Source of the DNA: Chiloscyllium plagiosum
Taxonomy: Eukaryota
Length of the DNA stretch: 34,367 nt
Direction of reading: 5' to 3'
Assembly (NCBI RefSeq): GCF_004010195.1
Contig: NC_057755.1
Location: forward strand, 3,564,938 to 3,599,304
The notes beneath the pieces are model-generated. The model ran no database searches, was not told the origin of the DNA, and saw nothing but the letters and a program-made list of their open reading frames with translations. Shown here piece after piece: positions 1 to 30,567 of the stretch. The first letter of the stretch is position 1, and the number at the start of each line of letters is the position of its first letter. A program made the position numbers and the translations under genes.

Positions 1-472
1 ACCCTATCTAACTCCCTAATCATCTTGTACACCTCAATCAAGTCACCCCTAACCCTTCTTTTCTCTAGTGAAAACAGCCCCAAGTGCCTCAGTCTTTTCT
101 CATACGATCTTCCTTCCATACCAGGCAACATCCTGGTAAACCTCCTCTGCACCCGTTCCAGTGCCTCCACATCCTTCCTATAGTATGGCGACCAAGACTG
201 CACACAATACTACTGATGCGGCCGCACCAGAGTCTTATACAACTGCAACATGACCTCAGTATTCCGGAACTCAATTCCTCTACCAATAAAAGCCAGTACG
301 CCATATGCCTTCTTCACCGCACTATTTACTTGGGTGGCAACTTTCAAAGATCTGTGTACATGGACACCAAGATCCCTCTGCTCATCCACACTACCAAGTA
401 TCCGACCATTAGCCCAGTACCCCATCTTTTTATTACTCTTACCAAAGTGAATCACCTCACACTTAGCTACAT
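1..472 (-). mobile_element. CR1-clade LINE fragment, ORF2 C-terminal (post-RT) region; runs off the window start
   Basis: ORF 210..455(-) reads IHFGKSN..QRDLGVHVHRSLKVATQV..KKAYGVLAFIGRGIEFR..LYKTLVRPH, typical of CR1 ORF2; same family as 18466-21218. Confidence 0.92.
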
Positions 473-6400: not shown

Positions 6401-9387
6401 AGTAGCACAATGAATCAGGTGTGCACAGCGTTTCACAGTATATCAGGATCCTGCCAGGACTGTACTGCGTTTGAGTGTATCTGGATCCTGCCAGTTGAGT
6501 TTAAAATTTCACACTGTTACAGGCACCTGCAAGGTGAGTACAGAGCTTAACAGTGTATCAGGATGCTGCCAGGTGTGTACAGGGTTTCACAGTTTATCAT
6601 GTCCCTGCCATTTATGTACAGGGTTTCTGACTGCATCACAATCGTCCCAGGTTTGTACTGGGTTTCAGTATCGATCAGTGTACTACTGTATTTGTACAGA
6701 GTTGCGCATTGTGGCAGAACCCTGCCAGATGTTTACAGGGTTTCAGAGTGTATCAGAATCCTGACAGGTGTGTACAGTGTTTCACATTGTATCAGAACCC
6801 TGCCAGGTGGGTACAGGGTTTTGCAGTGTATCAAAATCCTGCCAGATGTGTACAGGGTTTCAGAGTGTATCCGGATCCTTCCAAGTATGTACAGGGTTTC
6901 ACAGTGCATCAGGACCCTGCCATGTGTGTACAGGGTTTCAGACTGCATCACAATTGTGCCATGTGCGTACTGGTTTACAGAGTGTATCAACATACTGCAT
7001 TATGGGTACAGAATTTCACAGTGCATCAGGACCCTGCCAGGGGCGAACAAGGTTCCAAAGTGTATCAGGATCAAGCCAGGAGTGTATTGGGTTTTTCAGT
7101 TTATCAGGACCGGCCAGGAGAGTACACGGTTTCATAGTGCATCAGGATTCTGCCAGGTGTGTACAGGGTTTCACAGAGAATCAGACCCCAGCCAGGTGTG
7201 TACAGGGTTTCACAGTTTATCATGTCCCTGCCATTTATGTACAGGGTTTCTGACTGCATCACAATCGTCCCAGGTTTGTACTGGGTTTCAGTATCGATCA
7301 GTGTACTACTGTATTTGTACAGAGTTGCGCATTGTGGCAGAACCCTGCCAGATGTTTACAGGGTTTCAGAGTGTATCAGAATCCTGACAGGTGTGTACAG
7401 TGTTTCACATTGTATCAGAACCCTGCCAGGTGGGTACAGGGTTTTGCAGTGTATCAAAATCCTGCCAGATGTGTACAGGGTTTCAGAGTGTATCCGGATC
7501 CTTCCAAGTATGTACAGGGTTTCACAGTGCATCAGGACCCTGCGAGGTGTGTACCGGGTTTCATAGAGTATCAGGACTCTGCCAGGTGAGTACAGGGTTT
7601 CACGGTGTATTAGTACACTGCTTTGTGTTTACAGAGTTTCACAGTGTATCTGGATCCTGCCAGGTATGTACAGGCTTTCACAGTGTAATAGATCCTGCCA
7701 GTTGTACCCCGTATTTAACACTGTATCAGGACATACCAGGTGTGTACAGAGTATCACACTGAATCAGGTATGCACAGCGTTTCACAATATATCAGGATCC
7801 TGCCAGGAATGTATAGGGTTTGAGTGCATCTAGATTCAGCCAGTTAAGTTCAAAATTTCACACTGTAACAGGATCCTGCCAGGTGTGTACAGGGTTTCAC
7901 AGTGTATCAATAGCCTACCAGGTGTGTATAGGGTTTCAAAGTGTATCAGGATCCTTCCAGGTAAGTACAGGGTTTCACAGTGCATCAGGACCCTGCGAGG
8001 TGTGTACCGGGTTTCATAGAGTATCAGGACTCTGCCAGGTGAGTACAGGGTTTCACGGTGTATTAGTACACTGCTTTGTGTTTACAGAGTTTCACAGTGT
8101 ATCTGGATCCTGCCAGGTATGTACAGGCTTTCACAGTGTAATAGATCCTGCCAGTTGTACCCCGTATTTAACACTGTATCAGGACATACCAGGTGTGTAC
8201 AGAGTATCACACTGAATCAGGTATGCACAGCGTTTCACAATATATCAGGATCCTGCCAGGAATGTATAGGGTTTGAGTGCATCTAGATTCAGCCAGTTAA
8301 GTTCAAAATTTCACACTGTAACAGGATCCTGCCAGGTGTGTACAGGGTTTCACAGTGTATCATGTCCATGCCATTTGTGTACAGGGTTTCTGACTGCATC
8401 ACAATCGCCCCAGGTGTGTCCTGGGTTTCAGTATCGATCAGTGTAGTACTGTATTTGTTCAGAGCTGCGCAATGTAGCAAAATCCTGCCAGATGTTTACA
8501 GGGTTTCAGAGTGTATCAGTATCCTGTCAGGTGTATACAGGGTTTCACATTGTATCAGGATCCTGCCAGGTGTGTACAGGTTTTCACAGTGCATCAGGAC
8601 CCTGCCAGGTGCGTATCGGGTTTCACAGTGTATCGGGATCCTTGCAGGTATGTACAGGGTTTCACAGTGTATCAGGATCCTGCCAGGTGTGTATAGGATT
8701 TCACAGTGTATCAGGATACTGCGAGGTATGTACACGGTTTCACAGTGTATCAGAATCCTGCCAGGTGTGTATAGGGTTTCACAGTGTATCAGGTCCCTGC
8801 CAGATATATACAGGGTTTGACAGTGTATCAGGACCCTGTCAGGAAAAAATTGCTTTTCACAGTGCATCAGGATCCTGCCAGTTGAGTTTAGGGTTTCACA
8901 GTGTATCAGGATCCTGCCAGGTGTACAGGGTTTCATAATGTATCATGATCCTGCCAGGTATACAGGGTTTCACAGTTTATCAGGATGCTGCTAGGTGTGT
9001 ATAGGGTTTCACAGTGTATCAGGTCCCTGCCAGATATATACAGGGTTTGGCAGTGTATCAGGGCCCTGCCAGGTGTGTATCACTTTTCACAATGTATCTG
9101 GATCCTGCCAGATGTGTACAGGGTTTCACAGTGTATCAGGATCCTGCGAGGTGTGTACAGGGTTTCACAGTGTATCAGGACACTGCCAGATGTGTATAGC
9201 GTTTCACATTGTATCAGGACCTTGCCAGGTGTGTATAGAGTTTCACAGTGTATCAAAATCCTACCAGGTGTGTACAGGGTTTCAGAGTGTCTCAGGATCC
9301 TTCCAGGTATGTATAGGGTTTCATAGTGCATCAGGACCCTGCCAGGTGTGTACAGGGTTTCCCAGCGTATCAGGACCGTGTCAAGTG
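473..9387. repeat. 39-bp tandem satellite array, about 225-230 diverged monomers, consensus CAGGGTTTCACAGTGTATCAGGATCCTGCCAGGTGTGTA
   Basis: Direct periodicity; 13-aa repeats in the ORF track (RVSQCIRILPGVY / GFHSVSGSCQVCT / QGFTVYQDPARCV; HCETLYTPGRILI on minus). Copy number estimated as length/39. Confidence 0.97.
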
Positions 9388-9804
9388 TTGGAGGAAGAGC
9401 GCCTCATCTTCCGCCTTGGAACCTTCCAACCACAAGGGATGAACTCGGATTTCACCAGTTTCCTCATTTCCCCTACCCCCACCTTCTCTCAGTTAAATCC
9501 ATCGAACTCAGCACCGCCTTCCTAACCTGCAATCTTCTTCCTGACCTCTCCGCCCACACCCCAGTCTGACCTATCACCCTCACCTTGACCTCTTTCCACC
9601 TATCGCATTTCCGACGCCCCTCCCCCAAGTCCCTCCTCCCTACCTTTTATCTTAGCCTGCTGGACAGACTTACCTCATTCCTGAAGAAGGGCTTATGCCA
9701 GAAACGTCGATTCTCCTGTTCCCTGGGTGCTGCCTGACCTGCTGCGCTTTTCCAGCAACACATTTTCAGCTCTGATCTCCAGCATCTGCAGACCTCACTT
9801 TCTC
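9388..9804 (+). mobile_element. Penelope-like element terminal fragment (pLTR-like): GIY-YIG C-terminus, pyrimidine-rich UTR, hammerhead core and tail
   Basis: Translates LEEERLIFRLGTFQPQGMNSDFTSF, matching the end of the PLE ORF at 10153-10731 (LEEQHLIFRLGTLQPAGLNIEF); ends CCAGCATCTGCAGACCTCACTTTCTC. Confidence 0.88.
9681..9708 (+). ncRNA. Minimal type-I hammerhead ribozyme-like core in the PLE terminus
   Basis: CTGAAGA-A-GGGC-TTAT-GCCA-GAAACGTC; conserved boxes CUGANGA and GAAA, palindromic ACGT in place of stem III; one stem II mismatch relative to other copies. Confidence 0.7.
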
Positions 9805-9809
9805 CTGAG

Positions 9810-12850: not shown

Positions 12851-13350
12851 NNNNNNNNNNNNNNNNNNNNNNNNNNNNNNNNNNNNNNNNNNNNNNNNNN
12901 NNNNNNNNNNNNNNNNNNNNNNNNNNNNNNNNNNNNNNNNNNNNNNNNNNNNNNNNNNNNNNNNNNNNNNNNNNNNNNNNNNNNNNNNNNNNNNNNNNNN
13001 NNNNNNNNNNNNNNNNNNNNNNNNNNNNNNNNNNNNNNNNNNNNNNNNNNNNNNNNNNNNNNNNNNNNNNNNNNNNNNNNNNNNNNNNNNNNNNNNNNNN
13101 NNNNNNNNNNNNNNNNNNNNNNNNNNNNNNNNNNNNNNNNNNNNNNNNNNNNNNNNNNNNNNNNNNNNNNNNNNNNNNNNNNNNNNNNNNNNNNNNNNNN
13201 NNNNNNNNNNNNNNNNNNNNNNNNNNNNNNNNNNNNNNNNNNNNNNNNNNNNNNNNNNNNNNNNNNNNNNNNNNNNNNNNNNNNNNNNNNNNNNNNNNNN
13301 NNNNNNNNNNNNNNNNNNNNNNNNNNNNNNNNNNNNNNNNNNNNNNNNNN
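12851..13350. other. Assembly gap (500 N)
   Basis: Run of N. Confidence 1.
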
Positions 13351-13460
13351 GCAGGAGAATCGACGTTTCGGGCACAAGCCCTTCTTCAGGAAACGTCGAT
13401 TCTCCTGTTCCTTGGATGCTGCCTGTCCTGATGCGCTTTTCCAGCAACACATTTTCAGCT
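13351..13460. mobile_element. Fold-back PLE terminal module, left arm cut by the gap; hammerhead core on minus strand 13362-13389
   Basis: CAGGAGAATCGACGTTTC ... GAAACGTCGATTCTCCTG inverted arms; minus strand CTGAAGAAGGGCTTGTGCCCGAAACGTC. Confidence 0.8.
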
Positions 13461-13666
13461 AAGAAGAACAGGGCGCCCACCCAGTCATTTGGGCTGCGCT
13501 GATGCCTCAGCAGAACACCTGGATAGTAAATGTACAGACTTGTATATCGGAAAAATACATTTCAATGTCTGTATGTAAAGCAATGTAATGTTTGCACAAG
13601 AATGGCATGACCAATTGTAAAGAGATCCAAATAATTTTATGAATAAAGTATATTTTTGAAAAAAAA
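13461..13666 (+). mobile_element. Probable 3' UTR/poly(A) end of an L1/Tx1-type LINE
   Basis: AT-rich UTR with AATAAA at 13642 and an A-run at 13659-13666; family assignment from recollection only. Confidence 0.45.
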
Positions 13667-14134
13667 TAGTGCCTTAGAGTCCAGCCCCTTGACTGATCAC
13701 TGTTGGAAGAATGATAAATTGCCTGGCTTATGTCTGCACTGAACAACCAGGCAAGACAGGAGCACTGTGAAAAATTAGGTTCTGGTTGAAGCATCAAAGT
13801 GCAAAACTGCCAAGGTAAAGCAGAGATATTGCGCCAGTCCCTGAGCAGGAAATGTCTCAGGCACTGGAAAGTCTATGTTTCGAGTCTGACTGATCCTTTG
13901 TCAAAGCTAAAAAAAAGGCTGACAGTTTCATGATAGCTGCCTAGTCGTTTCCAGATTTTATAATCAGAGTAAACGATCTGTTTATCCAGGTGGCTTCATC
14001 TAATCTTTTCTGCCACCATGTTTGATAGTGAATGTAGATGACCAGCAATATATCAATCAGATGTGCTGGGGCTGAGTGTACATACCTAACAAGCCAGTAG
14101 TGTGTCTCTGTCAGTGTCAATGAGATTGCAGCTG

Positions 14135-14358
14135 TACACAGAGAATGGTGCAGCATAGAGGGAGGCACAGCAGCCTCTCATTGTCTGCATCAGCTGTCTG
14201 CCTGTATGGCCTCCTTCCCTCGTCCCACTCACCATGCTTTTCCCCACACATGCCCTGCAAATCTCTCTGAAGATAATTATTTGATTCTTTCCTGAAAGCC
14301 ATGATTGAATCTGGCTCTGGTTCCCCTCAGGCAGTGCACAGCCAATAGTGACCACTCA
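14135..14358 (-). mobile_element. Old CR1-like LINE 3' end remnant
   Basis: Minus strand resembles RVV..WNALPE..V....I.AFRKE and a CR1-type 3' UTR (ORFs 14086..14355, 14117..14302). Confidence 0.55.
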
Positions 14359-14958
14359 ATGAAGATGGCAGGGATTACCTAAATACCTTGATGAAATGTG
14401 ACACTTCGTTAAGGACAATTAACCCCTACCCCCCGCCGTCACCTCCATGCATTCCCTTGGTATATGCAATTGCCTGGAGTTTGTACTGTTCTAGTCTCTG
14501 GTCTAAACAAACTGAATGTTAACAATGCTAACAATTCCTGCCTCTCCACAAGGCAAACCAAGACAAACAATTGAAACGGGTTCTAATTCTGATCGAGTAC
14601 TATCACTGTCTGGAAATATTAGGTGACTGTTCTGAATAGAAATCCTTAGACTAATCCATTCGTCTTGTATTATGTGAACTCTGATCTCCAAACCATTAAA
14701 CTCTGCCAACCCCACCAATTGAAATGAACAGAACCATGGTCGACCTGACGTTCGATCAAGTGAACAGCCACAAATGATTTGGCTTTGACTCCAAATATTC
14801 TAATTGCAATTTGGTACCTTAGAATTCCAAATAAAGATTCATAGAGTCATGGAGTTGTACAGCACGAAAATAGACTCTTTGTTTAAGTGGCTGGCATCCA
14901 TCAGATAACTTCGATAAATCTAGTCCCACTTGCCAACATTTGGCCAATATCCCTCTGA

Positions 14959-15225
14959 GGTAAAAACAATGACTGCAGATGCTAGTAACCAGACTCTGGA
15001 TTAGTGGTGCTAGAAGAGCACAGCAGTTCAGGCAGCATCCAAGGAGCTTCGAAATCGACGTTTCGGGCAAAAGCCCTTCATTCAGGCAGCATCTAAGGAG
15101 ATTCGAAATCGACGTTTCGGGCAAAAGCCCTTCATCATTCCTGATGAAGGGCTTTTGCCCGAAACGTCGATTTCGAAGCTCCTTGGATGCTGCCTGAACT
15201 GCTGTGCTCTTCCAGCACCACTAAT
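14959..15225. mobile_element. Fold-back PLE terminal module with an internal 54-bp tandem duplication and ~15-bp TSD
   Basis: Inverted arms; flanks CCAATATCCCTCTGA (14944-14958) and CCAATATCCCTTTGA (15226-15240). Confidence 0.85.
15141..15168 (+). ncRNA. Minimal hammerhead ribozyme-like core
   Basis: CTGATGA-A-GGGC-TTTT-GCCC-GAAACGTC with a perfect 4-bp stem II. Confidence 0.72.
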
Positions 15226-15889
15226 CCAATATCCCTTTGAATCCTTCCTATTCATATGCCCATCCAGATGCTTTTCAAATGTTGTAATTGTACCCTCCTC
15301 CACCACCTCCTCTGGCAACTCATTCCATACACACACCATCTTCTGCATGAAACAAAGTTGCCCCTCAGGTCCCTTATAAATCTATCCTCTCTCAAATTAA
15401 ACCTGTGGCCTTTTCTTTTGGACTCCCCTACCCTGGGGAAAAATGCCCCTTATGATTTTATAAACGGCTATAAGGTCACCCCTCAGCCTCCAACAACCCA
15501 TACGGAACATTGTCACCCACCTTGCTGAAGTCCATGTAGACAACGTCTGCTGCTCTGCCTTCGTCAATCCTCTTTGTCATCTCTTCAAAAAACCTCAATC
15601 AAGTTAATGAGAGATGATTTCCCACACAAAAAGCTATGTTAACTATTCCTAATCAGTCCTTGCTTTTCCAAGTGCACGTGAATCATGATCCTCAACATAC
15701 CATCCAATAGCTTACTTATCACTGACATCAGGCTCACCAGAACTATATTGTTCTTATCGTGCAGACAGCACATTACTAAAAAAAAGTTTAGCATTATCTT
15801 TGCAATTAGAATGCAAAATCTAAAATGCAAAATAAATCAAAGAACTTCCAAGCTTGCTCTACTCCTCTTAGTATTAATGAAAATTGTCC

Positions 15890-16340
15890 AATTCAGTTTA
15901 TGGTCAAGTCTTGCTTCATTGATATTGATGGCAGTGGGTTAATGGGAATGTATCTGAATAGCAAGTGGGATCATTTGGATTATTTCTTACTGGGGATGCT
16001 CACTGCCAGGCAGAGTTATGTCTTTTATACCCCTTGACACTTTTCACCCCAAGCCTGAACTTCTTTGAATGTTGTCATGGATTGCTTCAGTGTCTGAGTA
16101 GCTGAAAATTATGTTTCACGTGAAGCAACCGATTAGGTACACCCACACTTCAGGTCTCATGGTAAATAGAAAATGATTGACCAAACCAAGCGTTGGCCGT
16201 AGTGAGGTGTTCGAGATGATTGTGAGAACCCCCATGGAAAAGTTGTACTGCTGAGATGATAGGCTTGTGGTCACTAGAAACATTTCCCTTTGTGGTATGG
16301 ATAACTCTAACCAGTGGAGAATGTATTCCTTGATTCACAG
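15890..16340 (-). mobile_element. Highly decayed CR1/L2-group RT remnant
   Basis: Minus strand approximates IKEYILHWLELSIPQREMFLV..SSQ....MGV, echoing the GI.G..L.WL..YL..R...VVV..GVPQG region. Confidence 0.5.
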
Positions 16341-16439
16341 GCGCTCACTCAGCTATATTAGACCAAATGCTGCAAAGAGCTCTCACTCTCTCTCGCCTTT
16401 CCTGTTCAGTTTCTTTGTCCATGCTCTGATTACAGTTGA

Positions 16440-16876
16440 GTAGAGTAGAATAGAAATTTTATTTGTCATTTCTACCATATACAACTGTTCCAGTGTTCCT
16501 CCAGTACAAAGGGTGCTGCATGGACAGCACAAACTACACAAACTACACGGCACAAGTAATGCAAAACACACAAGTTACTGTGTAACAGAAGAATGATGGA
16601 TAATAGACATTTTTCTAGCATCAATATGTAAGCATTTCAGACTGGAAAGAGTCCAATCATTCAGGAGCCTAATGGCTTTGGGAAGGAAACTGCTGCACAG
16701 TCTGGCTGTGAGAGATCATACGTCCAGGTATATTCTGTCAGATGGCAGGTGGGAGAAGAGCTTGAGTGAGGGGTGTGTGAGGTCTTCCACAATGCTCTTA
16801 CCCTTTCAGATGCAGCTTGTGGTGTAAATGTCTGTAATGAGGGAAGAGAGACGCCAATGATCCTTTCAGACTTCAT
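16440..16876 (-). mobile_element. Rex1/Babar-type LINE 3' fragment
   Basis: With a frameshift reads SERIIGVSLPSITDIYTTSCI..KSIVEDLTHPS..LFSHLPS..TARLCSSFLPKAIRLLN, the characteristic Rex1 C-terminus. Confidence 0.75.
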
Positions 16877-17454
16877 TGAGTTCTGGACCTCTGTTGATAT
16901 AGTGGACTCGAACTGAGGATGTATTTAGTCAGTTCTTGCGAAATATTTACCTCTTGATATTTACTTCTTAACTCTCCCAATGTTGGAGCAAACCTGGAAC
17001 AGCTTGACTCGCCTCTGGCCTGATTTTGCAGGACAAACAGTTCTTGATTTTCGGAAGCGTCTCTGACATTAACATAGGTTTTGAATTGATTTTTATTGAT
17101 TTTATTGTCAAAACAATCCAAAACCCACTTTATGTTAGTAATGGTGTAGGAAATCAAGACACTCGGTTCACTGTGCTTACGAAATCATTCATTCCTGTTA
17201 TGACTGAATACAGAAAGACAAATCCAAACGAAATAGTGCAAGAAAGAGAGGAAAGGCAGACAGGCTCCCGAATCATTTTATATCGTTACTAGTTGAGCAG
17301 AACAACCTAAATAGGGAGGGACAGGTAAATGAGTGAAATAGCTATCAGATTTTTAAAATTAATTTGTACTATACTTTATTACATACAAATGTATACAATA
17401 AACGAATATTAATTTATATAAAAGCCGACTCTCAGTTCTTTTACTGAATATAAG

Positions 17455-18465
17455 GACTTAAATGCATTGTGTGACAGGCACATCAATGGAGACATGGCTG
17501 AAAGGAGATCAGCACTGGGAGCGAAATATCCAAGGATATCCAACCTATCAAAAAGGCAGATGGGCAGAAGGAATGGGGTTGCTGTGTTAGTAAAAAATGA
17601 AATTAAGTCAATAGTGGTAAACGAAGTACAGTTGGATGATGTAGAATCTGTGTGGACAGAGTTGAGGAAACACAAATGTTAAAAAAAATATAACGGGAGT
17701 TACCGACACGCATCCAAACAGTAATCAGGATTTGGGACATAAGATACACCAAGAGATAGAAAACACGTGTAAGAAAGGTGAGGTTACAGTGATCATAGGC
17801 AATTTCAATATGCAGATGGATTAGAAAAAAAACAGGTGGTCATGGATTGCAAGAAAAGGAATTTATGGAAAGCGTACGAGATGGCTTCCTGGAGCAGATT
17901 GTGGTGGAGCACACTAGGGGACAATTAATATTGGATTTAGTGTTGTGCAATGAGGAAGACTTGATAAGGGAACTTACGGAGAAGGGACTCTGAGGAGGCA
18001 TTGACCATAATATGATTGGATTTACTCTGCAGTTTAAGAGGGAGAAGTCGGAATCAAATGTAACTGCATTACAGTTGAATAAAGACAACTATAGAGGCAT
18101 GAGGGAGAAGCTGACCGGAATGGACTGGGAGAGGAGCCTAGCAGGACACACAGTGGAACAGCAATGGCAGGAGTTTCTGAGAGTCATTTGAGAAACACAG
18201 CAACAATTCATGCCAAGGAAAAAGAAGCATACTGAAAGGAAGATGACGTAACCTGGCTGACCAGGGAAGTCAGCGACAGTAGAAAAGCAAAAGAGAAAAC
18301 ATGAAATGTGGCAAATGGTAATAGGAAGCCAGAGGGCAACAGACCAACAGAGGACAATGCAGAAAGAAATAAGGAGGGACAAGATTAAATATGAGGGTAA
18401 GCCAGCCGGTAATATTACGAAAGATTACAAGGATTTCTTCAGATATATAAAGGGCAGAAGAGAGA
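17455..18465 (+). mobile_element. Decayed CR1 ORF2 (APE endonuclease plus linker), left half of an element split by a nested insertion
   Basis: NIQGY..GRRNGVAVLVK..VESVWTELR; GNFN; ILDLVLCN; DHNMI; ends FFRYIKGRRE. Confidence 0.85.
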
Positions 18466-18742
18466 CATAGAACATAGAGCATTACAGTGCAATACAGGCC
18501 CTATGGCCCTCGATGTTGTGCCGACCTGTCATACCAATCTGAAGCCCATCTAACCTAAAGTATTCCATGTACGACCATATGTTTGTCCAATGACGACTTA
18601 AATGTACTTAAAGTTGGCGAATCTACTACCGTTGCAGGCAAAACAATCCATACCCTTACTACTCTCTGACTAAAGAAACTACCTCTGACATCTATCCTAT
18701 ATCTATCACCACTCAATTTAAAGTTATGCCCCCTTGTGCTCG

Positions 18743-18816
18743 CCGTCACCATTCCTGGAAAAAGGCTCTCTCTGTACACCGTCACCATTCCTGGAAAAAG
18801 GCTCTCTCTGTACACC
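18743..18816. repeat. Exact 36-bp tandem duplication inside CR1
   Basis: CCGTCACCATTCCTGGAAAAAGGCTCTCTCTGTACA twice; VYRESLFPGMVT twice in ORF 18555..18866. Confidence 0.95.
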
Positions 18817-20062
18817 ATATCTAACCCTCTGATAATTTTATATGTATCTATTAAGTCACCTCTCAACCTTCAAACGAAAACAGCCTCATGTCCCTCAGCC
18901 TTTCCTCGTAAGGCCTTCCCTCCATACCAGACAACATCCTAGTAAATCTCCTCTGCGCCCTTTCCAAAGCTTCCACATCCTTCTTATAATGCGGTGACCA
19001 GAATTGTACACAATACTCGAAGTGCGGCCGCACTAGAGTTTTGTACAGCTGTAGCATAAACGTATGGTTCCAGAACTCGATCCCTCTATTAATAAAGGCC
19101 AAAAACACTGTATGCCTTCTTAACAACCCTGTCAACCTGGGTGGCAACTTTCAAGGATCTGGACACCGAGCTCTCTCTGCTCATCTACACTAACAAGAAT
19201 CTTACCATTAGCCCAATACTTTGCATTCTGGTTACTCAGACCAAAGTGAATCACCTCACACTTGTCTGCATTAAACTCCATTTGCCAACTCTCTGCCCAG
19301 CTCTGCAACCTATCTATGTCTCTCTGTAACCTACAACATCCTTCGTCACTTTCCACAACTCCACCGACATTAGTGTTGTCTGAAAATTTACTAACCCACC
19401 CTTCTACGCCCTCATCCAGGTCGTTTATAAAAATGACGAACGGTAGTGGACCCAACACCGACCCTTGTGGTACACCACTGGTAACTGGACTCCAGGGTGA
19501 ACATTTCCAATCAACCACCACCCTCTGTCTTCTTTCAGCAAGCCAATTACTGATCCAAACTGCTACATCTCCCACAATCCCATTCCTCCGCATTTTGTAT
19601 AATAGCCTGCCGTGGGGAATCTTATCGAACGCCTTGCTGAAATCCAAATACACCACATCAACCGGTTTACTCTCATCTACCTGTTTGGTCACCTTCTCAA
19701 AGAACTCAATAAGGTTGTGAGGCACGACCTAACCTTCACAAAACCGTGCTGTCTATCCCTAATCAAATTATTCTTTTCTAGATGATTATAAATTCTATCT
19801 CTTATAACTTTTTCCAATAGTTTACCAACAACTGAAGTAAGGCTGTCTGGTCTATAATTACCAGGATTGTCTCTGCTCCCCTTCCTGAACAGGGGAACCA
19901 CATTTGCTCTCCTCCAGTCTTCTGGCACTATTCCTGTAGACAATGATGATTTAAAGCTCAATGCGAAAGTCTCGACAATTTCCTCTCTGGCTTCCCAGAG
20001 GATCCTAGGATAAATCCCATCCGGCCCAGGGGACTTATCTATTTTCACACTCGGCAGGATTT

Positions 20063-20114
20063 NNNNNNNNNNNNNNNNNNNNNNNNNNNNNNNNNNNNNN
20101 NNNNNNNNNNNNNN
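20063..20114. other. Assembly gap (52 N)
   Basis: Run of N. Confidence 1.
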
Positions 20115-21218
20115 AATATTCATTTAGTGCTTCCCCTATCTCCTCTGACTCCACACACAACTTCCCACTACTATCCTTGATTGGCCCTAATCTTACTCTT
20201 GTCATTCTTTTATTCCTTAAATACCTATAGAAAGCCTCGGTGTTTACCCTGATCCTATCCACCAACAACTTCTCATGTCTCCTTCGGGCTTTTTGGAGCT
20301 CTCGCTTTAGGTCTTTCCTGGCTAACTTGTAACCCTCAAGCGCTCTAACTGAGCCTTCACATCTCATCCTAACACAAGCCTTCTTCTTCCTCTTGACCAG
20401 TGATTCCACTTCCTTCGTAATCCACGGCTCTCGCGCTCTACAGCTTCCTCTCTTCCTGACAGGTACATACTTATCTAGGACACACAGTAGCTTTTCCTTG
20501 AATAAGCTCGACATTTCTAATGTGCCTATCCCCTGCAGTCTCCTTCTCATTCCCATGCTTCCTAAATCTTGCCTAATTGCATGATAAATTGCCTTTCCCA
20601 CAGCTGTAACTCTTGCCCAGTGGTATACACCTATCCCTTTCTATTAATAAAGTAAACATAACAGAATTGTGTTCGCTATCACCAAAGTGTTCACCTACTT
20701 CCAAGTCTAACACCTGGCCGGGCTCATTAACCAGTACCAAATCTAATGTGGCTTCGCCCCTTGTTGACCTGTCTCCATACTGTGTCAGGAAGCACTCCTG
20801 CACACACTGGACAAAAACTGACCCATCCATAGTACTCGTACTATAGTGTTCCCGGTCAATATTTGAAAAGTTGAAGTTCCCCATGACAACTAATCTGTCT
20901 CTCTCACTCCTATCGAGAATCATCTTTGCTATCCTTTCCTCTACATCTCTGGAACTAATTGGATGCCTATAGAAAACTCCCAACAGGGTGACCTCTCCTT
21001 TCCTGTTTCTAACTTCAGCCCATACTACCTCAACTGACGAGTTCCCAAACGTCCTTTCTGCAACTGTAATACTGCCCTTGACCAATAATAACACACCTCT
21101 CCCTCTTTTATCATCTTCTCTGTTCTTACTGAAACATCTAAATCCTGGAACCTGCAACAACCATTCCTGTCCCTGCTCTAACCATGTCTCCGAAATGGCC
21201 ACAAAATCGAAGTCACAA

Positions 21219-21560
21219 GTGGACACTGGGCCCCTGGCAAAATTACCTGGAGAAATTGTAGTGGGGAACACGGAAATGGCAGTGGAACGGAATAAGTACT
21301 TTGTGTCAGTCTTCATGGGGAAGAAACGAATCATATCCCAAAAATTCAAGAGAGTCAGGGGAAGAGATGAGTATGGGAACCATCACCCAGGAGAAGTTGC
21401 TGGAAAAATTGAAAGTTCTGAATGTCGATAAATCACCAGTACCAGAGGGGCTACAGCCCAGAGTTCTGAAAGAGGAAGCTGAAGAGCTAATGGAGGTTTT
21501 AGCAGTGATCTTTCAGGTATCACTGAACTCAGGGAGGATCTCGAGGGACTGGAAAATTCC
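21219..21560 (+). mobile_element. Right half of the split plus-strand CR1
   Basis: VDTGPLAKLPGEIVVGNTEMAVERNKYFVSVF..VDKSPVPEGLQPRVLKE..IFQVSLNSGRISRDWK. Confidence 0.85.
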
Positions 21561-21569
21561 TTACTTTGA

Positions 21570-21990
21570 AACAGCAGGTGGTATATTATGAACGGGTTCT
21601 GTATATGAGAGAGTGATACAGAGTGAGAAGAGGAGAGGGGAGAGTATTAAATATTTATGTTTGAGCGATAGAGAGTAAGTACAGCAGAGGGTACATTGCT
21701 AAAGATTTGTGTGTATGAGTGCAGCACAGGGGAAATTAGTAAAATGCCTGTGTGAGAGAGACAACACGATACACAGTACATCGAGGGATGGGGAGACACA
21801 GTTAATTTAGGATTTATGTGTGACACAGAGAACGTATAACAGAGGGCACTTCATTAAAGATTTGTGAGAGTGAGACAGTGAGATGGGCAAAGTCCAGCAG
21901 GGGAGACATAATGAAATATTATTGTCTGAACGAGTGTGTGATAGAGAGAAAATGAAGCAGAGAGGATATTATTATACATTTGTGTGTGTG

Positions 21991-22034
<44 letters not shown>

Positions 22035-22118
22035 TGAGAGAGAGAGAGAGAGTGGGAGAGACAATAAAATACAGACAGAGTGCAGAGGAGGGTTGCACTT
22101 TGTTAAAGATTTGTATGT
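21570..22118. repeat. Degenerate irregular tandem repeat containing a (GT)n(GA)n microsatellite at ~21981-22052
   Basis: Recurrent motif like CAGCAGAGGG..CATT.TTAAAGATTTGTGT. Confidence 0.65.
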
Positions 22119-22500
22119 CATCCATGTATGGGGAGGCTTTGACCTGCAGGCCCTTGCTGCCTGGAAAAGTTCCCCTCTCGGACTCACATCCTTCCTCAAT
22201 GACTCAGCAAAAGGCTCTAGAGAGCACACAGACAAGGCAGAAGAGAGTGGGCAGTGCTGCCTGACTCTGGATCTGATCGGGAAAGCTTTCTGATTTCCAC
22301 CCATTGATTTAGACTGCACTAACGATGTTGGTGGAGAGCAGTCGGATCTAATTACAAATTCCCTCCCCCCAACCTATTTAGAGACCACACCCCACATGGA
22401 GGAGTGCAATATCCTGTCATAGACATTCCCCTGGCTCAGGCTGATGAGGCCATCTCTCAGGTCCAGCCTGGTACAGCACAGGTTTGATTTGGGTGAATCA
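22117..22500 (-). mobile_element. Tx1/L1-clade RT fragment, decayed
   Basis: FPIRSRVRQHCPLSSALSVCSLEPFAESLRKD, then QVKASPYMDD; upstream LISLSQGNVYDRILH (approximating SLDQEKAFDRV.H). Confidence 0.8.
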
Positions 22501-23550
22501 CCAATCGAAGAGCAGTTCGCCAGTTGGTGATAATATATGAATATCTCTCTTGTATAATAAAAAGTTGCCCCCCATGATTTAACAAAGCATAAATGTAGGC
22601 ATGTGTCAGATGCTACAGGTTGAATGCCAGTATCTACAAACATGGGGTGCAGTGGCATACCCTGAGATGTTAATGCCATGTGTCCAAGATACATGTGTGG
22701 AAGAGCAAGCATTGAGCTGATGTCGCTGATACTCACTTATTTTTGTGTTGAGAGTTCTCAGCCCTTCATTGCTTTTTGGCAGGGGGTAGAATAGGAACAT
22801 ATACATTAAATGAGGTGAGATAAATAATAATGAGCATGAATGAGCACCTTGCCATTTACTCATAACAATCTCATCTTAGCCTCCAGGATTTGCTAGGTAA
22901 GTTTGACCTGTAGATCTCAACGACAAGAAAGGCCTCATTTGACATCTAACAATTCTTCCAAATTATTCACTATCGTTGACGTATTTTGCCAGTGTACTGT
23001 TGTGAGGAGGAAGAGAGTTCCTTTGGCTAGGGAGATGTTAAAAAAAAAGCAGTCAACAATGCCCAAGTAATTTTCTCATGGTTTATTGAGTTTGCAAAGA
23101 AGCATCCGTTTAGGCATGTCACATCAGTTAATTAGATAAACAAAGTATACAACAGAGATATTTGGTATCAGTGACTGATACCAGAGGACACACAGACAGA
23201 CGGCACAAAATGTTTTAATCTTTTTAAAGTGGTGAGGTTGCATTCTGCTCTCTCATGGAGATGATAGCGAACTCTTCCCATGATCTTCCTCCTCTTCTTC
23301 TGGTCCATCTTTCATCTGCCTGATGAGGACTGCTCAATGACGACTGCTCTCTGGGGACAGAGTAATGAGATCTGCTATCGACGAGATCTGCTTGCTGAGA
23401 AGTACCCTCAGAACTTCTCTCAGCCCCAACACATTATTCAATCATATTTCCAGGGGCATGTCGTTTATACTATGTCAACCAATTGTCTGAATTCTTTTGG
23501 CCAGTGGTCATGGGGCAGCTGCATTGGAACTACTGGAAATAGCAGTTTAT

Positions 23551-23692
23551 AATCCTTGGGATGCAGGTGTTTGTGGGATGGAAAGCGAGGAACAAAGGGA
23601 TCTTGTCAGCGTTGTGGGAGGGAAGAGAATGGATGGTGAAGGCAGAGGTGTGGGAAATGGGTGGGACATGGCTAAGGACCATGTCTATCCCA
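23551..23692 (-). mobile_element. PLE linker-region remnant
   Basis: Reverse complement reads ..PISHTSAFT..HNADKIPLFLAFHPTN, homologous to 10740-10860. Confidence 0.7.
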
Positions 23693-23759
23693 GTAAGTGC
23701 CTGAAATGTTTTGTCTCAAGTGAGAATTCCACCAGTCTTCACTTTCTACCCACCAGCAT

Positions 23760-23965
23760 CTTTGATTTGATTATTGTCACATATACCTAGATACAGTGAA
23801 AAGTTCTATTTTCCTGCAGTACAGGCAGATTATAGTCTACAACGTGCATTAGGTAATTCAACAAAGCAAACAATACAATGTTACAGCTGCAGAGAGAAGG
23901 TGCACAGAGAGCGAGATCCATATTAAAATTAATTTCAATGGTCCATTCAGAAGTATAATAATGCA
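23760..23965 (-). mobile_element. Probable LINE (Rex1-like) 3' UTR remnant
   Basis: Minus strand ends CACTGTATCTAGGTATATGTGACAATAATCAAATCAAA, similar in style to the tail near 16450. Confidence 0.45.
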
Positions 23966-23989
23966 TCTAATAATCTTCAGATCATTCAG

Positions 23990-26975
23990 GTGGGTGGACG
24001 GGGTTATTGAGGCTTTACATGGAGGTAGTCACACCGCAGGTACAACAAAGAGGCAGGTGGATTAGGCAGGGGATGGAAAGGGAACCAGCAGACAGTGCAG
24101 GGATCCCCTGCAGCAATTCCCATCAAAGGGTATATTGTTCTGGATAGTGTTGGGGTCGGGGGAGGATGGTGAAAGGACTTACCAGGGGTACGTCATGGAG
24201 TACAGGTCTCTGGCACAGAGTCTGTCCTTGTTGCTCAGAAAGGAAGTTTTGGGGGAGATGATGAGCAGAGAATTAGTCACCAGGGACACCCGAGTTAGGG
24301 GATCATAAAGGAGTTTCTGTGGGAGTGAGAGAGACTCACAGTTTGGGTGTTGCCTCCCAGGTGCCAAAGTTCGTGATGTCTCAGGTCATGTTTCAGGATC
24401 CTTGGATGGAGGTAGCAGCTCCAAGTTGTGGTCCACTTAGGCACTAATGACATAGTTAGGAAAAGGGATTTGGATTTAACACAGAAATTCAGGGAACTAT
24501 GTTGGAAGCTTAGAGCAAGAACAAACAGTTGTTATATCTGCTTTGTTACCCATGCCACATGCTGGCGAGGCGAGGAATAGGGAGAGACAGGAGTTGAACA
24601 CGTGGCTGCACGGATGGTGCAGTGGTTAAGAGTTTCGGATAACTGGAGAACTGGGGCTCGTTGTGGGGTAGGTGGGACCTCTTCAAACAGGATGGTCTAC
24701 ACGTGAACCAGAGGGCCCCAATATCCTGGAGCGGGTGCTCTTTGGGCGGGTTTAAACTAATTCAACAGGGGGATGGGAACCTATATTGTCGTTCCAGTGT
24801 CCAGGATATTGAGGTCATAAATATGGTTTCAAGGTTGCGAGAGTGCACCAGCAAGCAGGAAGGTGGTATGAAATGTGTTTACTTCTGGAGCTTCTGGAAT
24901 AAAGCGAATGAACTTGCAGCATGGATTGGTACCTGGGACTTCAATGTTGTGGCTATTTCAGACACATGGATAGAGCAGGGACAGGAATAGTTTTTGCAGG
25001 TTCCAGGATTTAGATGTTTCAGTAAGAACAGAGAAGATGGCAAAAAGGGGGAGGTGTGGCATTGTTAGTCAAGGGCAGTATTACTGTTACAGAAAGGATG
25101 TTTGAAGACTCGTCTACTGAGGTAGTATGGACTGAGATTAGAAATAGGAAAGGAGAAGTAACCCTTTTGGGAGTTTTCAATCGGCCTCTGGGTTAGTTCC
25201 AGAGGGAGAGGAAAGGATTGCAAATCTTATTCTGGAACTGAGCAAAAGTAACAGGGGAAGTTTTATGGGTTGAAAAACGGCGCTTGAGGGTTACAATCTA
25301 GCCAGGAAACACCTCAAAAAAGAACTAAGAAGAGCCATGAGGGGACATGAGAAGTTGTTGGCTGATAGGATCAAGGAAAATCCTAAAGCTTTTGATAGGT
25401 ATAATCAGGAATAAATTACGAGAGATAGATTAAAGTCAAACAAGAACGGTCATGGGAAGTTATGCGTGGAGTCTGAGGAGATAGGAAAAGTGCTAAACGA
25501 ATATCTTTTGTCAGTATTCACACTAGAAAGAGACAATGTTGTCAAGGGAAATACTGAGATGTCGGCTATTGGACGAGACAGGATTGAGGTTCACAAGGAG
25601 GAGGTGTTAGCAATTCTGGAAAGTGTGAAAATAGGTAAGTCCCCTCGGCCAGATGGGATTTATCCTAGGATTCTCTGGGACGCAAGGGAGGATATTGCAG
25701 AGCCTTTGACTTTGATCGTTTTGTCGTCATAATCTACAGGAATAGCGCCAGAAGACTGAGCGATAGCAAATGTTGTCCCCTTGTCAAGAAGGGGAGTAGA
25801 GACAACCCTGGTAATTAGGGAGAAGTGAGCCTTACTTCAATTGTGGGTAAAATGTTGGGAAGGGTTGTAAAGAGATAAAATTTATAATCATCTAGAAAGA
25901 AATACGTTGATTAGGGGTAGTCACACGGTTTTGTGAAGGGTGTATCGTGCCTCACAAACCTTACTGAGGTCTTTGAAATGGTGTCTAGATTAGATTGGTG
26001 CTGGAAAAGCACAGCAGGTCAGCCAGCATCCGAGGAGCAAGATAATTGATGTTTCAGGCAAACACCCTTCATCAGGAACCTGCTCCTCGAATGCTGCCTG
26101 ACCTGTTGTGCTTTTCTAGCATCACTCTAATCTAGACTCTGGTTTCCAGCATCTGCAGACCTCGTTTTTACCTCTTTGAAATGCTGACTAAACAGGTGGA
26201 TGCGGGTAAAGCGGTTGATGTGATGTACATGGAGTTCAGTAACGTGTCTGATAAGGTTCACCACAGTAGTCTATTGCACAAAGTACAAAGACATGGGATT
26301 GAGGGTGATTTAGCAGTTTGGATCAGAAATTGGCTCGCTGAAAGAGACAGAGAGTGATGGTTGTTGGGAATGTTCATCCTGGAGTTCAGTTGCTGGTGGT
26401 GTACCGCAAGGATCTGTTTTGGGTCCACTGACGTTTGTCATTTCATAAATGAACGAGATGAGGGCGTAGAAGGATGGGTTAATAAGTTTACAGATGACAG
26501 TAAGGTCGGTGGAGTTGTGAATAGTGCCGAAGGATGTTGCAGGTTACAGAGGGACATAGACAAGCTGCAGAGCTGGGCTGAGAGGTGGCAAATAGAGTTT
26601 AATGTGGAAAAGTGTGAGATGATTCACTTTGGAATGAGCAACAGGAATAAAGAGTACTGGGCTAATGGTAAGTTTTTGGCAATGTAGATGAGCCAAGAGA
26701 CCTCAGTGTTCAGGTATATAGATCCCTGAAAGTTGTCACCCAGGTGGATAGGGTTGTTAAGGCATACGGTGTGTTAGCCTTTATTGATAGAGGGATTGAG
26801 TTTCTGAGCCACGAGGTTATGCTGCAGAGGTACAAAATTCTGGTGCAGCCTCTCTTGAGTATTGCGTACACTTATGGTCACCACATTATAGGAAGGATGA
26901 GGAAACTTTGGAAAGTGTTCAGAGGAATTTACTAGGATGTTGCCTGGTATGGAGGGAAGGTCTTGTGAGGAAAGA
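23990..26975 (+). mobile_element. Decayed CR1 LINE: ORF1 SGNH esterase domain plus ORF2 (EN with a large deletion at ~25270, RT)
   Basis: VVHLGTNDI, WGRWDLFKQDGLHVN (ORF1); WDFNVVAISDTWIEQGQE; KSPRPDGIYPRILW; NKFTDDSK. Confidence 0.92.
25984..26172. mobile_element. Older fold-back PLE terminal module with 14-bp TSD; decayed hammerhead core on minus strand 26048-26075
   Basis: Inverted arms TCTAGATTAGA..TCTAATCTAGA; flanks TCTTTGAAATGGTG (25970-25983) and TCTTTGAAATGCTG (26173-26186). Confidence 0.82.
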
Positions 26976-27567
26976 CCAATTCGTCCATGCCACCCAGATA
27001 TTCTAGATTAATCTTGATCCATTTGTCAGCGCTTGGCTCATATCCCTCTAAACGCTTCCTATTCGTTTAGCCACCTAAATGCCTTTTACTTGTTGTAATT
27101 ATACCAGCCTTCCTCTGGCAGCTCAATCCATACATGTACCACCTTTTGCATGAAAACACTGCCCCTTAGGACCCCATTAAATATTTATCCTCTCACCCTA
27201 AACCTACATCCTCTGGTTCCAGACTCTCCACCCAAGGGAAAAGCCCTTTTCTATCCATGCCAGTCATGATTTTATAAATCTTATAAAGGTCACCTTTCAG
27301 CCACTGCCACTGCAGGGGAAACAGCCCCAGCCTATTCAGTGCCGACAGGTGAACCTCTCCAACCCTGGCAACAGCCTTATAAATGTCTTTTCTGAACTCT
27401 TCCAAGTTCACAACATTCCTCCTTTAGGAGGGAGGCAACAATTGCCCACAATATACCAATGCCCTGTACAGCTGCAACATGCAACCTACAACCTCTGACA
27501 ATCGATGCTCTGACCAATATAATAAAGCATACCAAATGCCTTCTTCACTAACCTATCTACCTGTGAC

Positions 27568-27775
27568 GAGAAAGTGAGGTCTGCAGATGCTGGAGATCAG
27601 AGCTAAAAATGTGTTGCTTGAACAGCGCAGCAGGTCAGACAGCATCCAATAAACAGGAGAATCGACGTTTCGGGCATAAGCCCTTCCTGATGAAGGGCTT
27701 ATGCCCGAAACGTCGATTCTCCTGTTTCTTGGATGCTGCCTGACCTGCTGCGCTGTTCAAGCAACACATTTTCAG
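27568..27775. mobile_element. Fold-back PLE terminal module with a perfect 14-bp TSD
   Basis: TATCTACCTGTGAC at 27554-27567 and 27776-27789; about 80-bp near-perfect inverted arms. Confidence 0.9.
27687..27714 (+). ncRNA. Minimal hammerhead ribozyme-like core
   Basis: CTGATGA-A-GGGC-TTAT-GCCC-GAAACGTC. Confidence 0.72.
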
Positions 27776-27959
27776 TATCTACCTGTGACTCCAATTTCAA
27801 GGAACTATGAACTTGGACTCCAAGGTCTCTGTTCAGCAACTTTTCCCAAGACCGGGCTATTAAGTAATGCGCCACCACCTACTCTTCCGGCAGTCAGCCC
27901 TGCCCCAGCTCAGGGCAACACTCTCCAAGACCTTCAAAGAACCTCTGTTGTTCTTCATA

Positions 27960-28597
27960 CTGAGAATAGATCCACACACTCCCACACCTGTGTGGATGAC
28001 ACCTCCTACTAGTCCTCCTGCAAAAACGTGATCCGTATTCCCAATTGCTCAACCTCAGCCATATCTGTTCCCAGGAAATAACAGTTACACTCTAGGACAT
28101 CCCAGATGGCCTCCTATGTCAATGACTGCAATTTCCCCTCCCACATGATCAACAATGCCCTCCAGCACATCTACTCCACTTCCTGCACCTCCACCCTTGA
28201 ACACCACCCATCCAATAAGGACTTAAATCCACCCCCGTCCTTACTTTCCACCTCAATAATCTCCAGGTCCAGTGCATTATCCTCCGCCACCTACAATCAG
28301 ACCCCAACACCAGAGATATATCTCCCTCCTATCCCTATCTGTGTTCTGCAGAAACCATTCCCTCCATGACTCCCTCATTAGGTCCACGCACCCGCCTCCT
28401 CCTCCCCACTCCCCCAAACACACCTGGCACCACCTTCCCTTGCCATTGCAAACACCATAAAATCTGCACTCAAACGTCCCCCCTCATCTCTGTCCAAGGC
28501 CGTAATGGACCTTTTCACAACCGGCAGAGATTTTCCTGCACATCCAAACACCTCATCTACTGTGTCCGTTACTCTTGATGAGGTTCCCTCTACATCG
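27960..28597 (+). mobile_element. Decayed PLE (RT thumb, linker, N-half of GIY-YIG)
   Basis: THSHTCVDDTS..SCKN; MASYVNDCNFPSHMINNAL; FPCHCKHHKICTQTSPLISVQG..FSCTSKHLIYCVR..LYI. Confidence 0.8.
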
Positions 28598-30150
28598 AAC
28601 AAAGAATGAATAAAATTTACAGCCCAGGAACAGGCCCTTCGGCCCTACACGCCCGAGCCGATCCAAATGTACGGTCTAAACCTCAGTCAATTCCTAAGCA
28701 TCTGTATCCCTCTGTTCCCCACCTACTCATGCATTTGTTCAGAAGCATCTTAAATGAATCTACCGTGCCTGCCTCTACCACCTCTGCTGGCAACGCGTTC
28801 CAAATTCCCTCCACCCTCTGTATGAAGCACTTTCGACATGTATCCCCCTTAAATTTTCCACCTCTCACCTTGAAAGCGTGACCTCGCGTCATTGTATCCT
28901 TCACCCTGGGAAAACGCTTGTCTCTCTCTCCCCTGTCTATACCCTTCATGATTTTGTAAACCTCAACCAGGTCCCCCCTCAATCTCGTTTATCAGAATGA
29001 AAATAAATCTAACCTACTCAACTTTTCTTCATAGCTAGCACCTTCCATACCAGGCAACATCCTCGTAAACCTTCTCTGCACCCTCTCCAAATCGTCCACC
29101 TTCTTTTGGTAATGTGGCGACCAGAAGTGTACACAGTATTCTAAATGTGGACGAACCAATGTCTTGTACAATTTTAACATGACTTGCCAGCTCTTTTTCT
29201 CAATACTCCGTCCAATGAAGACAAGAATACTATATACCACTCTATCCACCTGTGCAGCAATCTTCAGGGTACGATGGACCTGCACTCCCAGATCTCTGTG
29301 GCCATCAACATTTCCCAAGGCTCTTCCGTTCATTGTATAATTGGCTCTCGAATTAATCTTGCCGAAATGCATCACCTCACATTTGTGTGGATTGAAAACC
29401 ATTTGCCACTTTTCCACCCAACTCTCCAGTCTATCTATATTGTCCTGTATTCTCTGGCAGTCCCTTATGCTTTCTGCTACTCCACCAATCTTCGAGTCAT
29501 CTGCAAACTTGCTGATCATACCAAAAGTGCCCGCTTCATGATCATTTATGTATATTACAAACAACAGTGGCCCCAACACTGACTGCTCTGGAACACCACT
29601 GGTCACCTTTGTCCATTTCGAGAAACGCCCTTCAACTACTACAGTCTCCTGTTGCACAATCAGTTCTTTATCCACCTAGCTAGAACACCCTGCACACTAC
29701 GTGACTTCACATTCTCCATTAGTCTACCATGTGGAACCTTATCAAATGCCTTACTAAAGTCCATGTGTATGACAACAACAGCCCTTCCTTCATCTATCAA
29801 CTTGGTCACTTCCTTGAAGAATTCTATTAAGTTGGTAAGGCACGGTCTTCCCCGCACAAAACCATGTTGCCTATCATTGATAAGCCCATTCTTTTCTAAA
29901 TATAAATAGATCCTATCCCTTCGTATGTTCTCTAGCAACTTTCCCATCACTAACGTCAAGCTAACTGGTCTGTAGTTACCTAGAGTATCCCTACTACCCT
30001 TCTTGGACATGTATAAACATGAGCAACCCTCCAGTCCTCCGGCACCTCACCTGTATTTAAGGATGCCACAAAGATATCTGTCAGGACACCAGCTATTTCC
30101 TCTCTCGCCTACCTCAGCAACATGGGATACATTCCATCCAGTCCTGGGAC
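28598..30150 (-). mobile_element. 5'-truncated CR1 LINE inserted into the PLE GIY-YIG region
   Basis: ORFs 29660..30010 (NYRPVSLT, MDFSKAFDKVPH), 28992..29675 (SKFADDSK), 28683..28982. Confidence 0.93.
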
Positions 30151-30567
30151 TAATCAAATTTATATTTCTAATCCCAACATTCATCATATTGGGGAGATGG
30201 GACGCCAATTCGTGGAACATTTCAGGGAATATCTCTGGGACATGCACCAAATAACTCCCTCCTCCCATGCTGCCAAGGACATGCAAGTTCAGGGCCCTCC
30301 AGTCCTCCGGCACCTCACCTGTATTTAAGGATGCCACAAATATATCTGTCAGGACACCAGCTATTTCCTCTCTCGCCTCCCTCAGCAACCTGGGATACAT
30401 GCCATCCAGTCCTGGGACTAATCAAATTTCTATTTCTAATCTCAACATTCATCATATTGGGGAGATGGGACGCCAATTCGTGGAACATTTCAGGGAATAT
30501 CTCTGGGACATGCACCAAACAACTCCCTCCTCCCATGCTGCCAAGGACATGCAAGTTCAGGGCCTCC
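30027..30567. repeat. 268-bp tandem duplication spanning the CR1/PLE junction
   Basis: Copies start at 30027 and 30295; about 7 substitutions between them. Confidence 0.93.

Follow-up and report, generated by a model that had tools for sequence, protein, structure and literature searches.

Hammerhead-bearing fold-back insertions in the genome of Chiloscyllium plagiosum as probable by-products of Penelope-like element integration

Introduction

A stretch of 34,367 nucleotides of the genome of Chiloscyllium plagiosum (3.56 Gb; contig NC_057755.1, positions 3,564,938 to 3,599,304), hereafter the window, contains four short insertions, at 13351, 14959, 25984 and 27568, in which the terminal module of a Penelope-like element (PLE) is folded back on itself near a hammerhead ribozyme motif. 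How do such hairpins arise? An earlier examination of the letters alone (the sequence-only reading) offered two answers, namely, stereotyped abortive products of PLE integration or a non-autonomous hairpin element mobilised by the PLE protein. The results presented here indicate that the fold-backs are very probably by-products of PLE integration, each formed independently. The explanation preferred here, with a probability of roughly 0.7, is that two target-primed cDNAs, copying the front ~90–130 nt of the PLE RNA, build each hairpin anew as a dead-end insertion. Positions in the module are numbered from the first T of TTCCTGA (+1), the A preceding that T being 0.

Abundance and Junctions of the Fold-Back Insertions

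One exact fold-back pattern, representing one subfamily and allowing arms to reach −7, was found in 4,518 copies genome-wide, and the reversed-pattern control gave 0. Sixty stretches of 10 kb each, placed arbitrarily and comprising 571,654 non-N bases, contain 64 module loci: 24 fold-backs, 15 solo copies starting from ≤ +9, 10 modules attached to a pseudo-long terminal repeat (pLTR), 12 fragments and 3 loci at gaps. The minimum devoid of an open reading frame (ORF), represented by the fold-backs and solo copies, is the commonest form of module locus. Extrapolation from the 24 fold-backs gives a genome total of ~0.9–2e5, older related families included.

Junctions and target-site duplications (TSDs) were analysed in a sample made up of the first 50 among the 4,518 loci, which come entirely from contig C1 and are unselected for junction; the top 30 matches to the copy at 27568, picked by likeness to the query, were kept out of the statistics. 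The predicted TSD mode near 14 bp was borne out: the mode is 14–15 bp, TSDs of 13–16 bp flank 39 of the 50 copies, none was found in 7, and swapped-flank controls gave 0/100 with a TSD of ≥ 9 bp. One arm reaches +120..132 and the other +85..100 in 43/50 copies; the stretch present on the longer arm only is the tail.

The 50 copies have 28 junction types. Microhomology of 2–3 nt is present in 28 copies, a single shared nucleotide in 5, a blunt junction in 5 and inserted bases in 12. Three junctions dominate (9, 8 and 5 copies), and all three recur in two subfamilies; with the modal junction, the tail is found on either arm, in the ratio 4:4. Of the 48 copies that could be scored, 36 carry the tail on their 5'-trimmed arm and the other 12 on the complete one. 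A fold-back tailed on both arms, one of which extends 70 nt into the ORF start, was also observed (L341).

These data bear on the second answer, in which a replicating family of hairpins is itself transcribed and then moved again by the PLE protein. Its number of exact matches, a uniform size of ~205–215 bp, the few dominant junctions and the presence of fold-back junctions in RNA reads would suit such a family. It is nevertheless highly improbable: a single inherited junction and polarity, expected of a replicating element similar to miniature inverted-repeat transposable elements (MITEs) or short interspersed elements, was not found; the same junctions occur in different subfamilies, with the tail on either arm; and solo stubs and long copies have these end points as well. 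Moreover, RNA of such a stub would be a closed duplex, and the stubs do not contain the sequence downstream of the tail needed by the protein of PAc, an Anolis Poseidon element studied in vitro (PMC11167929). In contrast, stereotyped by-products of PLE integration are supported by the TSD mode, the non-random 5' edge and the attachment of the module to PLE ORFs, described below.

Parent Penelope-like Element

A 5'-truncated PLE copy is located in the window at 9386..9806; there, the end of a GIY-YIG domain and a pyrimidine-rich pLTR come ahead of the module. Walking upstream from this copy led to loci with an ORF encoding reverse transcriptase (RT) and GIY-YIG, at whose end the module is located, so the proposed attachment of the module to PLE ORFs stands. 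The ORF is a single one, with RT followed by a C-terminal GIY-YIG, and the module follows it in the same loci. Protein P0001 (from L134) matches RVT_1 with E 1.1e-5 and GIY-YIG with E 2.9e-4; neither match reaches the curated Pfam cut-offs. Its atlas neighbours at 0.92–0.95 are eukaryotic RT/GIY-YIG clusters. The sequence motifs of endonuclease-positive (EN+) PLEs, as defined in PMC8557442, are present in the translations read by eye. In P0001, the linker joining RT to EN is CX4CxxC; a zinc-finger-like linker CX2-5CxxC belongs to the definition of Neptune/Nematis (PMC8557442). By these features, the parent is an RT + GIY-YIG PLE with a Neptune/Nematis-type linker.

Thirty long copies end at +93..97 (18), +127 (9) or elsewhere (3), and tails continue into common further sequence in 2 of the 100 rows listed. 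At seven local loci, the sequence past the tail is the ORF N-terminus, with ATG at +166. Since these loci run into the ORF and the long copies end in the module, the module must be located both ahead of the ORF and behind the 3' untranslated region (UTR).

Young long PLE copies (L216-L245, L281-L296) very often adjoin assembly gaps, and full-length or tandem copies are therefore probably under-represented. Arrays of a 72-nt tandem repeat akin to the GC-rich repeats of the PLE N-terminal region were found at G000:C15:4034396-4036248 (L297-L310) and also in C10 and C1. In three head-to-tail tandems (L338, L004, L342), a short copy from position 0 comes after a piece that extends into the beginning of the ORF, which would suit a jump of RT from the RNA 5' end to another RNA; these loci may bear on the formation of pLTR tandems.

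Hammerhead Motif and the Fixed 5' Edge

The module fits a predicted minimal hammerhead located in the pLTR, according to the model of PMC4209133, from which the predicted cut position, between +31 and +32, was also taken. Among 251 motif matches, helix II GGGC/GCCC is present in 210, the extra A in 246 and the palindromic C-G plus C17 in 199, with little compensatory change. Folding of one module alone, as RNA, yielded nothing stable (z +1.5), which is what a minimal hammerhead of the dimer type should show. An Rfam scan gave no match to a hammerhead family; mir-722 and bantam matches, far below threshold, were dismissed as generic hairpin matches. At 32096 in the window, a pyrimidine-rich stretch is followed by a motif resembling a hammerhead, which belongs to a different and older PLE family.

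Arms of the fold-backs end at a sharp 5' edge, near the A (position 0) of CTCATT, 4 nt ahead of the hammerhead core. None of the arms in the 50-copy sample extends beyond −1. Of the first 100 among 30,438 arm matches (counted by hand, the first 30 rows script-checked, some rows being two arms of one insertion), 69 stop at +9..−2, 1 near −5, and 30 run on. A further sample of 97 arms was anchored downstream of the ribozyme; after removal of 26 older arms, 71 young, unselected ones remained, starting at −2..+4 in 26 cases, at +5..+12 in 10 and at +32 in 2, with 18 running on. The 5' edge is thus not randomly spread across copies. CTCATT is initiator-like and fits the initiator consensus.

The sequence-only reading implied a role of the ribozyme in this start, a view not upheld by the 2/71 arms which begin at the predicted cut. 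If the ribozyme determined an uncapped end of the RNA, either through self-cleavage or through a 5'-3' nuclease or RT halting at the ribozyme fold, this would agree with the coincidence of the edge with the 5' strand of helix I and with the two arms exactly at +32, given that none start at +21..+31 or +33..+38. Cleavage, however, would remove the core, which most arms retain; a 4-nt microhomology accounts for one of the two arms at +32; a stall predicts no extra G at one position; and ribozyme mutants of the lizard element insert normally (PMC11167929). Such an origin of the end is very unlikely; in the explanation preferred here, the ribozyme would be at the hairpin centre only because it is located at the RNA 5' end.

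In the young subfamily, C follows position 0 on the cDNA strand 2,665 times, and A and T together do so 1,626 times; such a C corresponds to an extra sense-strand G before the A, and the ratio expected from the composition of the genome sample (C 0.21, A+T 0.59) is ~0.36:1. One base earlier, after +1, C was counted only 683 times, and in 100 rows C after +1 was found in 0/10. Among 20 fetched loci with the extra G, 11 are solo copies with TSD (the G being untemplated in 4 and within target microhomology in 7), and 9 are fold-back or complex. In LINE-1 (L1), a long interspersed element, an untemplated 5' G is accepted as showing that reverse transcription passed through the cap (PMC9341517), and the promoter of Drosophila Penelope is located within the pLTR (PMC2377424). 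The fixed edge likely marks the start of a capped RNA, not the hammerhead cut site. At the 9386..9806 copy, transcription would start from the A at 9677. A splice acceptor at the edge was ruled out, as no AG precedes +1 in either subfamily; comparison with the consensus by eye gave no downstream promoter element at the expected spacing. In RNA run X19, 175 reads at position 9804 of the window share one flank, with AATAAA just behind the tail, which suggests that a well-expressed 3' UTR elsewhere contains a copy.

Proposed Mechanism

According to the preferred explanation, the mRNA would start, capped, at the A (0) of CTCATT and continue through the module, tail and ORF in the order seen at the loci. 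GIY-YIG would cut the target strands 14–15 nt apart, the length of the observed TSDs, leaving two 3' overhangs. From each 3' end, RT would be primed at an internal site of the RNA, near +92 for one end and near +130 for the other, and the stretch between these sites would become the tail; these end points are those of the insertions, and their role as priming sites is proposed by analogy with the biochemistry of the lizard element. Since the RT start sites would also lie near the mRNA 5' end, both cDNAs would reach the RNA end within ~130 nt. There, RT would often add C opposite the cap, in keeping with the edge and the extra base. The cDNA ends would then be joined into a head-to-head hairpin, mostly via the 2–3 nt microhomologies found in the near-palindromic first 18 nt. 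Priming from one strand only would yield a solo stub, and priming at the 3' module copy would yield the ordinary long truncated copies. The template may be one RNA molecule or two.

The relationship between the arms is relevant to a different origin of the second arm. Arms diverge by 1.9% within an insertion and by 4.1% between insertions, share the subfamily haplotype, and have 8 of 12 doubleton variants in common; shared private variants sought in other arms were found in 0–2/199, the background level, and no clear chimeric arms from two subfamilies were found in the 50 copies. Palindromes in Adineta were interpreted in PMC3846280 as self-priming on an antisense template, with sense versus antisense left open. 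If the cDNA snapped back upon reaching the RNA end, or if an antisense transcript served as its own primer, the second arm would be a DNA copy of the first; shared haplotypes and doubletons are consistent with this, and the common junctions could form as small hairpins within one molecule, with loops of 5–8 nt. Shared variants are, however, equally expected from one RNA serving both cDNAs or from later self-correction of the palindrome. A copy cannot exceed its template, yet 36 of the 48 scorable copies have the tail on the 5'-trimmed arm, and this polarity largely refutes such snap-back; the extra G at position 0, in addition, points to a sense, capped template. Snap-back as the origin of the second arm is unlikely; if it merely starts the joining of two target-primed cDNAs, it is a variant of the explanation preferred here.

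Several observations weigh against two target-primed cDNAs on a capped RNA. In the older subfamily (100 rows, counted by hand), the edge is broader, with 38 arms stopping at +9..−5, 5 at −11..−14 and 57 running on; this subfamily lacks the initiator C and shows no visible excess of C. Some of the 2,665 cases owe their G to the target or to the opposite arm, the loci having been fetched from the C group only, and a source RNA beginning at a templated G would look identical. No pile-up of starts was seen in an RNA run with 2,032 reads, which cannot separate copies; the second of the two runs gave no reads. Junctions with inserted bases (12/50), and blunt ones or those sharing 1 nt (together 10/50), depart from the microhomology pattern. 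No intact tandem master (pLTR-ORF-pLTR) was recovered in the upstream walk, which ended in GC-rich repeats and gaps, and the lizard data (PMC11167929) are from another clade.

Insertions of the Window and Their Target Sites

All four fold-backs of the window were confirmed as inverted repeats, with arms of 85, 84, 57 and 27 nt and complementarity of 99, 96, 89 and 85%; the copy at 27568 folds with −163.5 kcal/mol (z = −23 against 200 shuffles). The claim that one arm starts at +1 or 0, 3 nt ahead of the CTGANGA core, is true of all of them. The inversion centre, placed at the ribozyme by the sequence-only reading, is near it in every copy and is not one fixed base: the partner arm starts at +24 in copy 13351, +9 in copy 27568 and +38 in copy 25984, and in copy 14959 it was re-primed, with an internal duplication of 57 nt. 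The single-arm tail and TSDs of 14–15 bp hold for the three complete copies, while copy 13351 adjoins a 500-N gap (12851-13350), which hides its left end and TSD. Feature coordinates are given in Table 1.

CR1 had been named as the target of the complete copies, which was supported for 25984 and 27568 in 3/3 tests and for 14959 in just 1/3; by eye, the site of the latter is the 3' end of a CR1. Window copies are located in CR1 because the window is CR1-rich, not through target preference: CR1 was hit by 36/373 insertions and 161/1,500 random positions (p = 0.57), and in further comparisons by 3/48 versus 47/600, 5/48 versus 45/400 and 5/48 versus 39/400. A CR1-targeting element was thereby rejected in four comparisons; the CR1 library detects ~8–11% of random positions, and old copies may be missed equally in both sets. 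A cluster at CR1 profile positions 1050-1170 (10/36 versus 20/161, p = 0.04) is not claimed, because it was chosen after the fact and some insertions were counted by both ends. Two independent fold-backs (L152 and L253) are located at about the same CR1 position (profile 1134-1145), and copy 27568 with four others is within 100 nt of it, which is non-significant as tested. The AT content of TSDs is 62%, compared with 59% for the genome sample; the target is only mildly AT-rich.

Older PLE remnants are also present in the window: part of an ORF beside the 9386-9806 copy (10159-10776, minus strand, tblastn 51%) and further RT/EN remnants at 28104-28602 and 30158-30710. A degenerate tandem array with a unit of ~36 nt occupies ~8400-9380 and, by eye, stops where the PLE copy starts.

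Table 1. Coordinates of the parent element copy and of the four fold-back insertions in the window.
Feature	Position	Strand	Details
Parent PLE copy, 5'-truncated	9386..9806	+	GIY-YIG C-terminus, pLTR, module 9678-9806, tail; tblastn 84%, E 8e-16
Copy 1, left arm	13351..13392	-	visible part, reaches +1; remainder lost in N gap 12851-13350
Copy 1, right arm	13390..13460	+	+24..+94; 3-nt GAA microhomology with left arm at 13390-13392
Copy 2, left TSD	14944..14958	.	15 bp, 1 mismatch with 15226-15240
Copy 2, tailed arm	14959..15137	-	older subfamily; 57-nt re-copied stretch 15081-15137
Copy 2, short arm	15137..15228	+	from 0/+1; hammerhead core begins at 15141
Copy 2, right TSD	15226..15240	.	
Copy 3, left TSD	25970..25983	.	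14 bp, 1 mismatch; within CR1 RT remnant
Copy 3, short arm	25984..26078	-	+95..+1
Copy 3, tailed arm	26079..26172	+	from +38; blunt junction
Copy 3, right TSD	26173..26186	.	
Copy 4, left TSD	27554..27567	.	14 bp, exact
Copy 4, tailed arm	27568..27686	-	+127..+9; unpaired tail 27568-27602
Copy 4, short arm	27684..27775	+	+1..+92; 3-nt microhomology 27684-27686
Copy 4, hammerhead core	in 27684..27775	+	from 27687; predicted cut after 27714 (PMC4209133 model)
Copy 4, right TSD	27776..27789	.	

Comparison with Known Systems

MITEs, palindromic non-autonomous DNA transposons and retrozymes are short, high-copy and hairpin-forming or hammerhead-bearing. The fold-backs differ from all of them in having no fixed junction, asymmetric ends, 14–15 bp TSDs and ribozymes arranged head-to-head and not in tandem. 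L1 twin priming inverts sequence without duplicating it and starts at the poly(A) tail, whereas both cDNAs proposed here would copy the same stretch from internal sites. As in L1 twin priming, the second target strand would prime the second cDNA. The extra G would mark the cap, as it does in L1 (PMC9341517).

The unit of EN+ PLEs consists of an inverted 5'-truncated pLTR, a one-sided tail of 30–40 bp and TSD (PMC8557442, PMC3846280, PMC8969392). The layout of inverted pLTR plus tail is already described. The fold-backs themselves are ordinary PLE debris. Together with this unit (PMC8557442) and Adineta Pen2a (PMC3846280), they have head-to-head arms, a tail on one arm, TSD, a palindromic junction and a pLTR hammerhead; they differ in the dominance of the ORF-less minimum, the sharp 5' edge and the extra G, as well as in the TSD mode, which is 8–10 bp in Adineta (PMC3846280). 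Longer versions of the inverted-pLTR layout are also present in this genome (L096, L114, L127).

Minimal hammerheads of metazoan PLEs were described in PMC4209133, where dual motifs on opposite strands, 100–700 bp apart, were attributed to truncated PLEs. The core, the extra nucleotide after A9, G10.1-C11.1, the palindromic 15.2-16.2 and the short helix I are shared with them. In the available text of that paper, no anatomy, junctions or TSDs are given for opposite-strand pairs, and the word 'shark' is absent from the main text.

For PAc, both target strands are cut and extended in vitro (PMC11167929). Two internal RT starts bounding the tail, cutting and extension of both strands, and a ribozyme dispensable for insertion would be features in common. 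PAc belongs to another clade, the element described here having the CX4CxxC linker; its ORF starts inside the ribozyme and not after the tail, and the only mildly AT-rich target is a further difference. The available text of PMC11167929 neither explains inverted copies nor maps the mRNA 5' end.

In the literature searched, no account was found of fold-backs without an ORF as the main product of PLEs, of an edge marked by a cap or of twin priming in PLEs; the search did not extend to most subscription papers, to Dfam or Repbase, to Arkhipova 2006 or to the supplements accompanying PMC4209133 and PMC11167929, which may bear on these points.

Biological Significance

The origin of the PLE inverted repeats and of the one-sided tail is called unresolved in PMC8557442 and PMC11167929. 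Tens of thousands of minimal insertions provide countable junctions, which favour two-strand priming on capped sense RNA. For PLEs as a class, the balance leans slightly towards priming of both cut strands on capped sense RNA at two internal sites, of which the ~1e5 stubs would be the in-genome record. If so, two-strand priming alone would account, across the whole class, for the tail, the TSD and the inverted repeats set head to head, the promoter would be placed at the 5' edge of the ribozyme, and the antisense self-priming model would be replaced. The model predicts an exact transcription start and cut stagger, and the number of stubs makes this mechanistic question directly testable.

In repeat annotation, the hairpins could be taken for MITEs or, given the weak Rfam mir-722 matches, for miRNA precursors. 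With approximately one fold-back per 25 kb, they are a likely source of double-stranded RNA in this genome; lizard Penelope copies are heavily A-to-I edited (PMC5625713).

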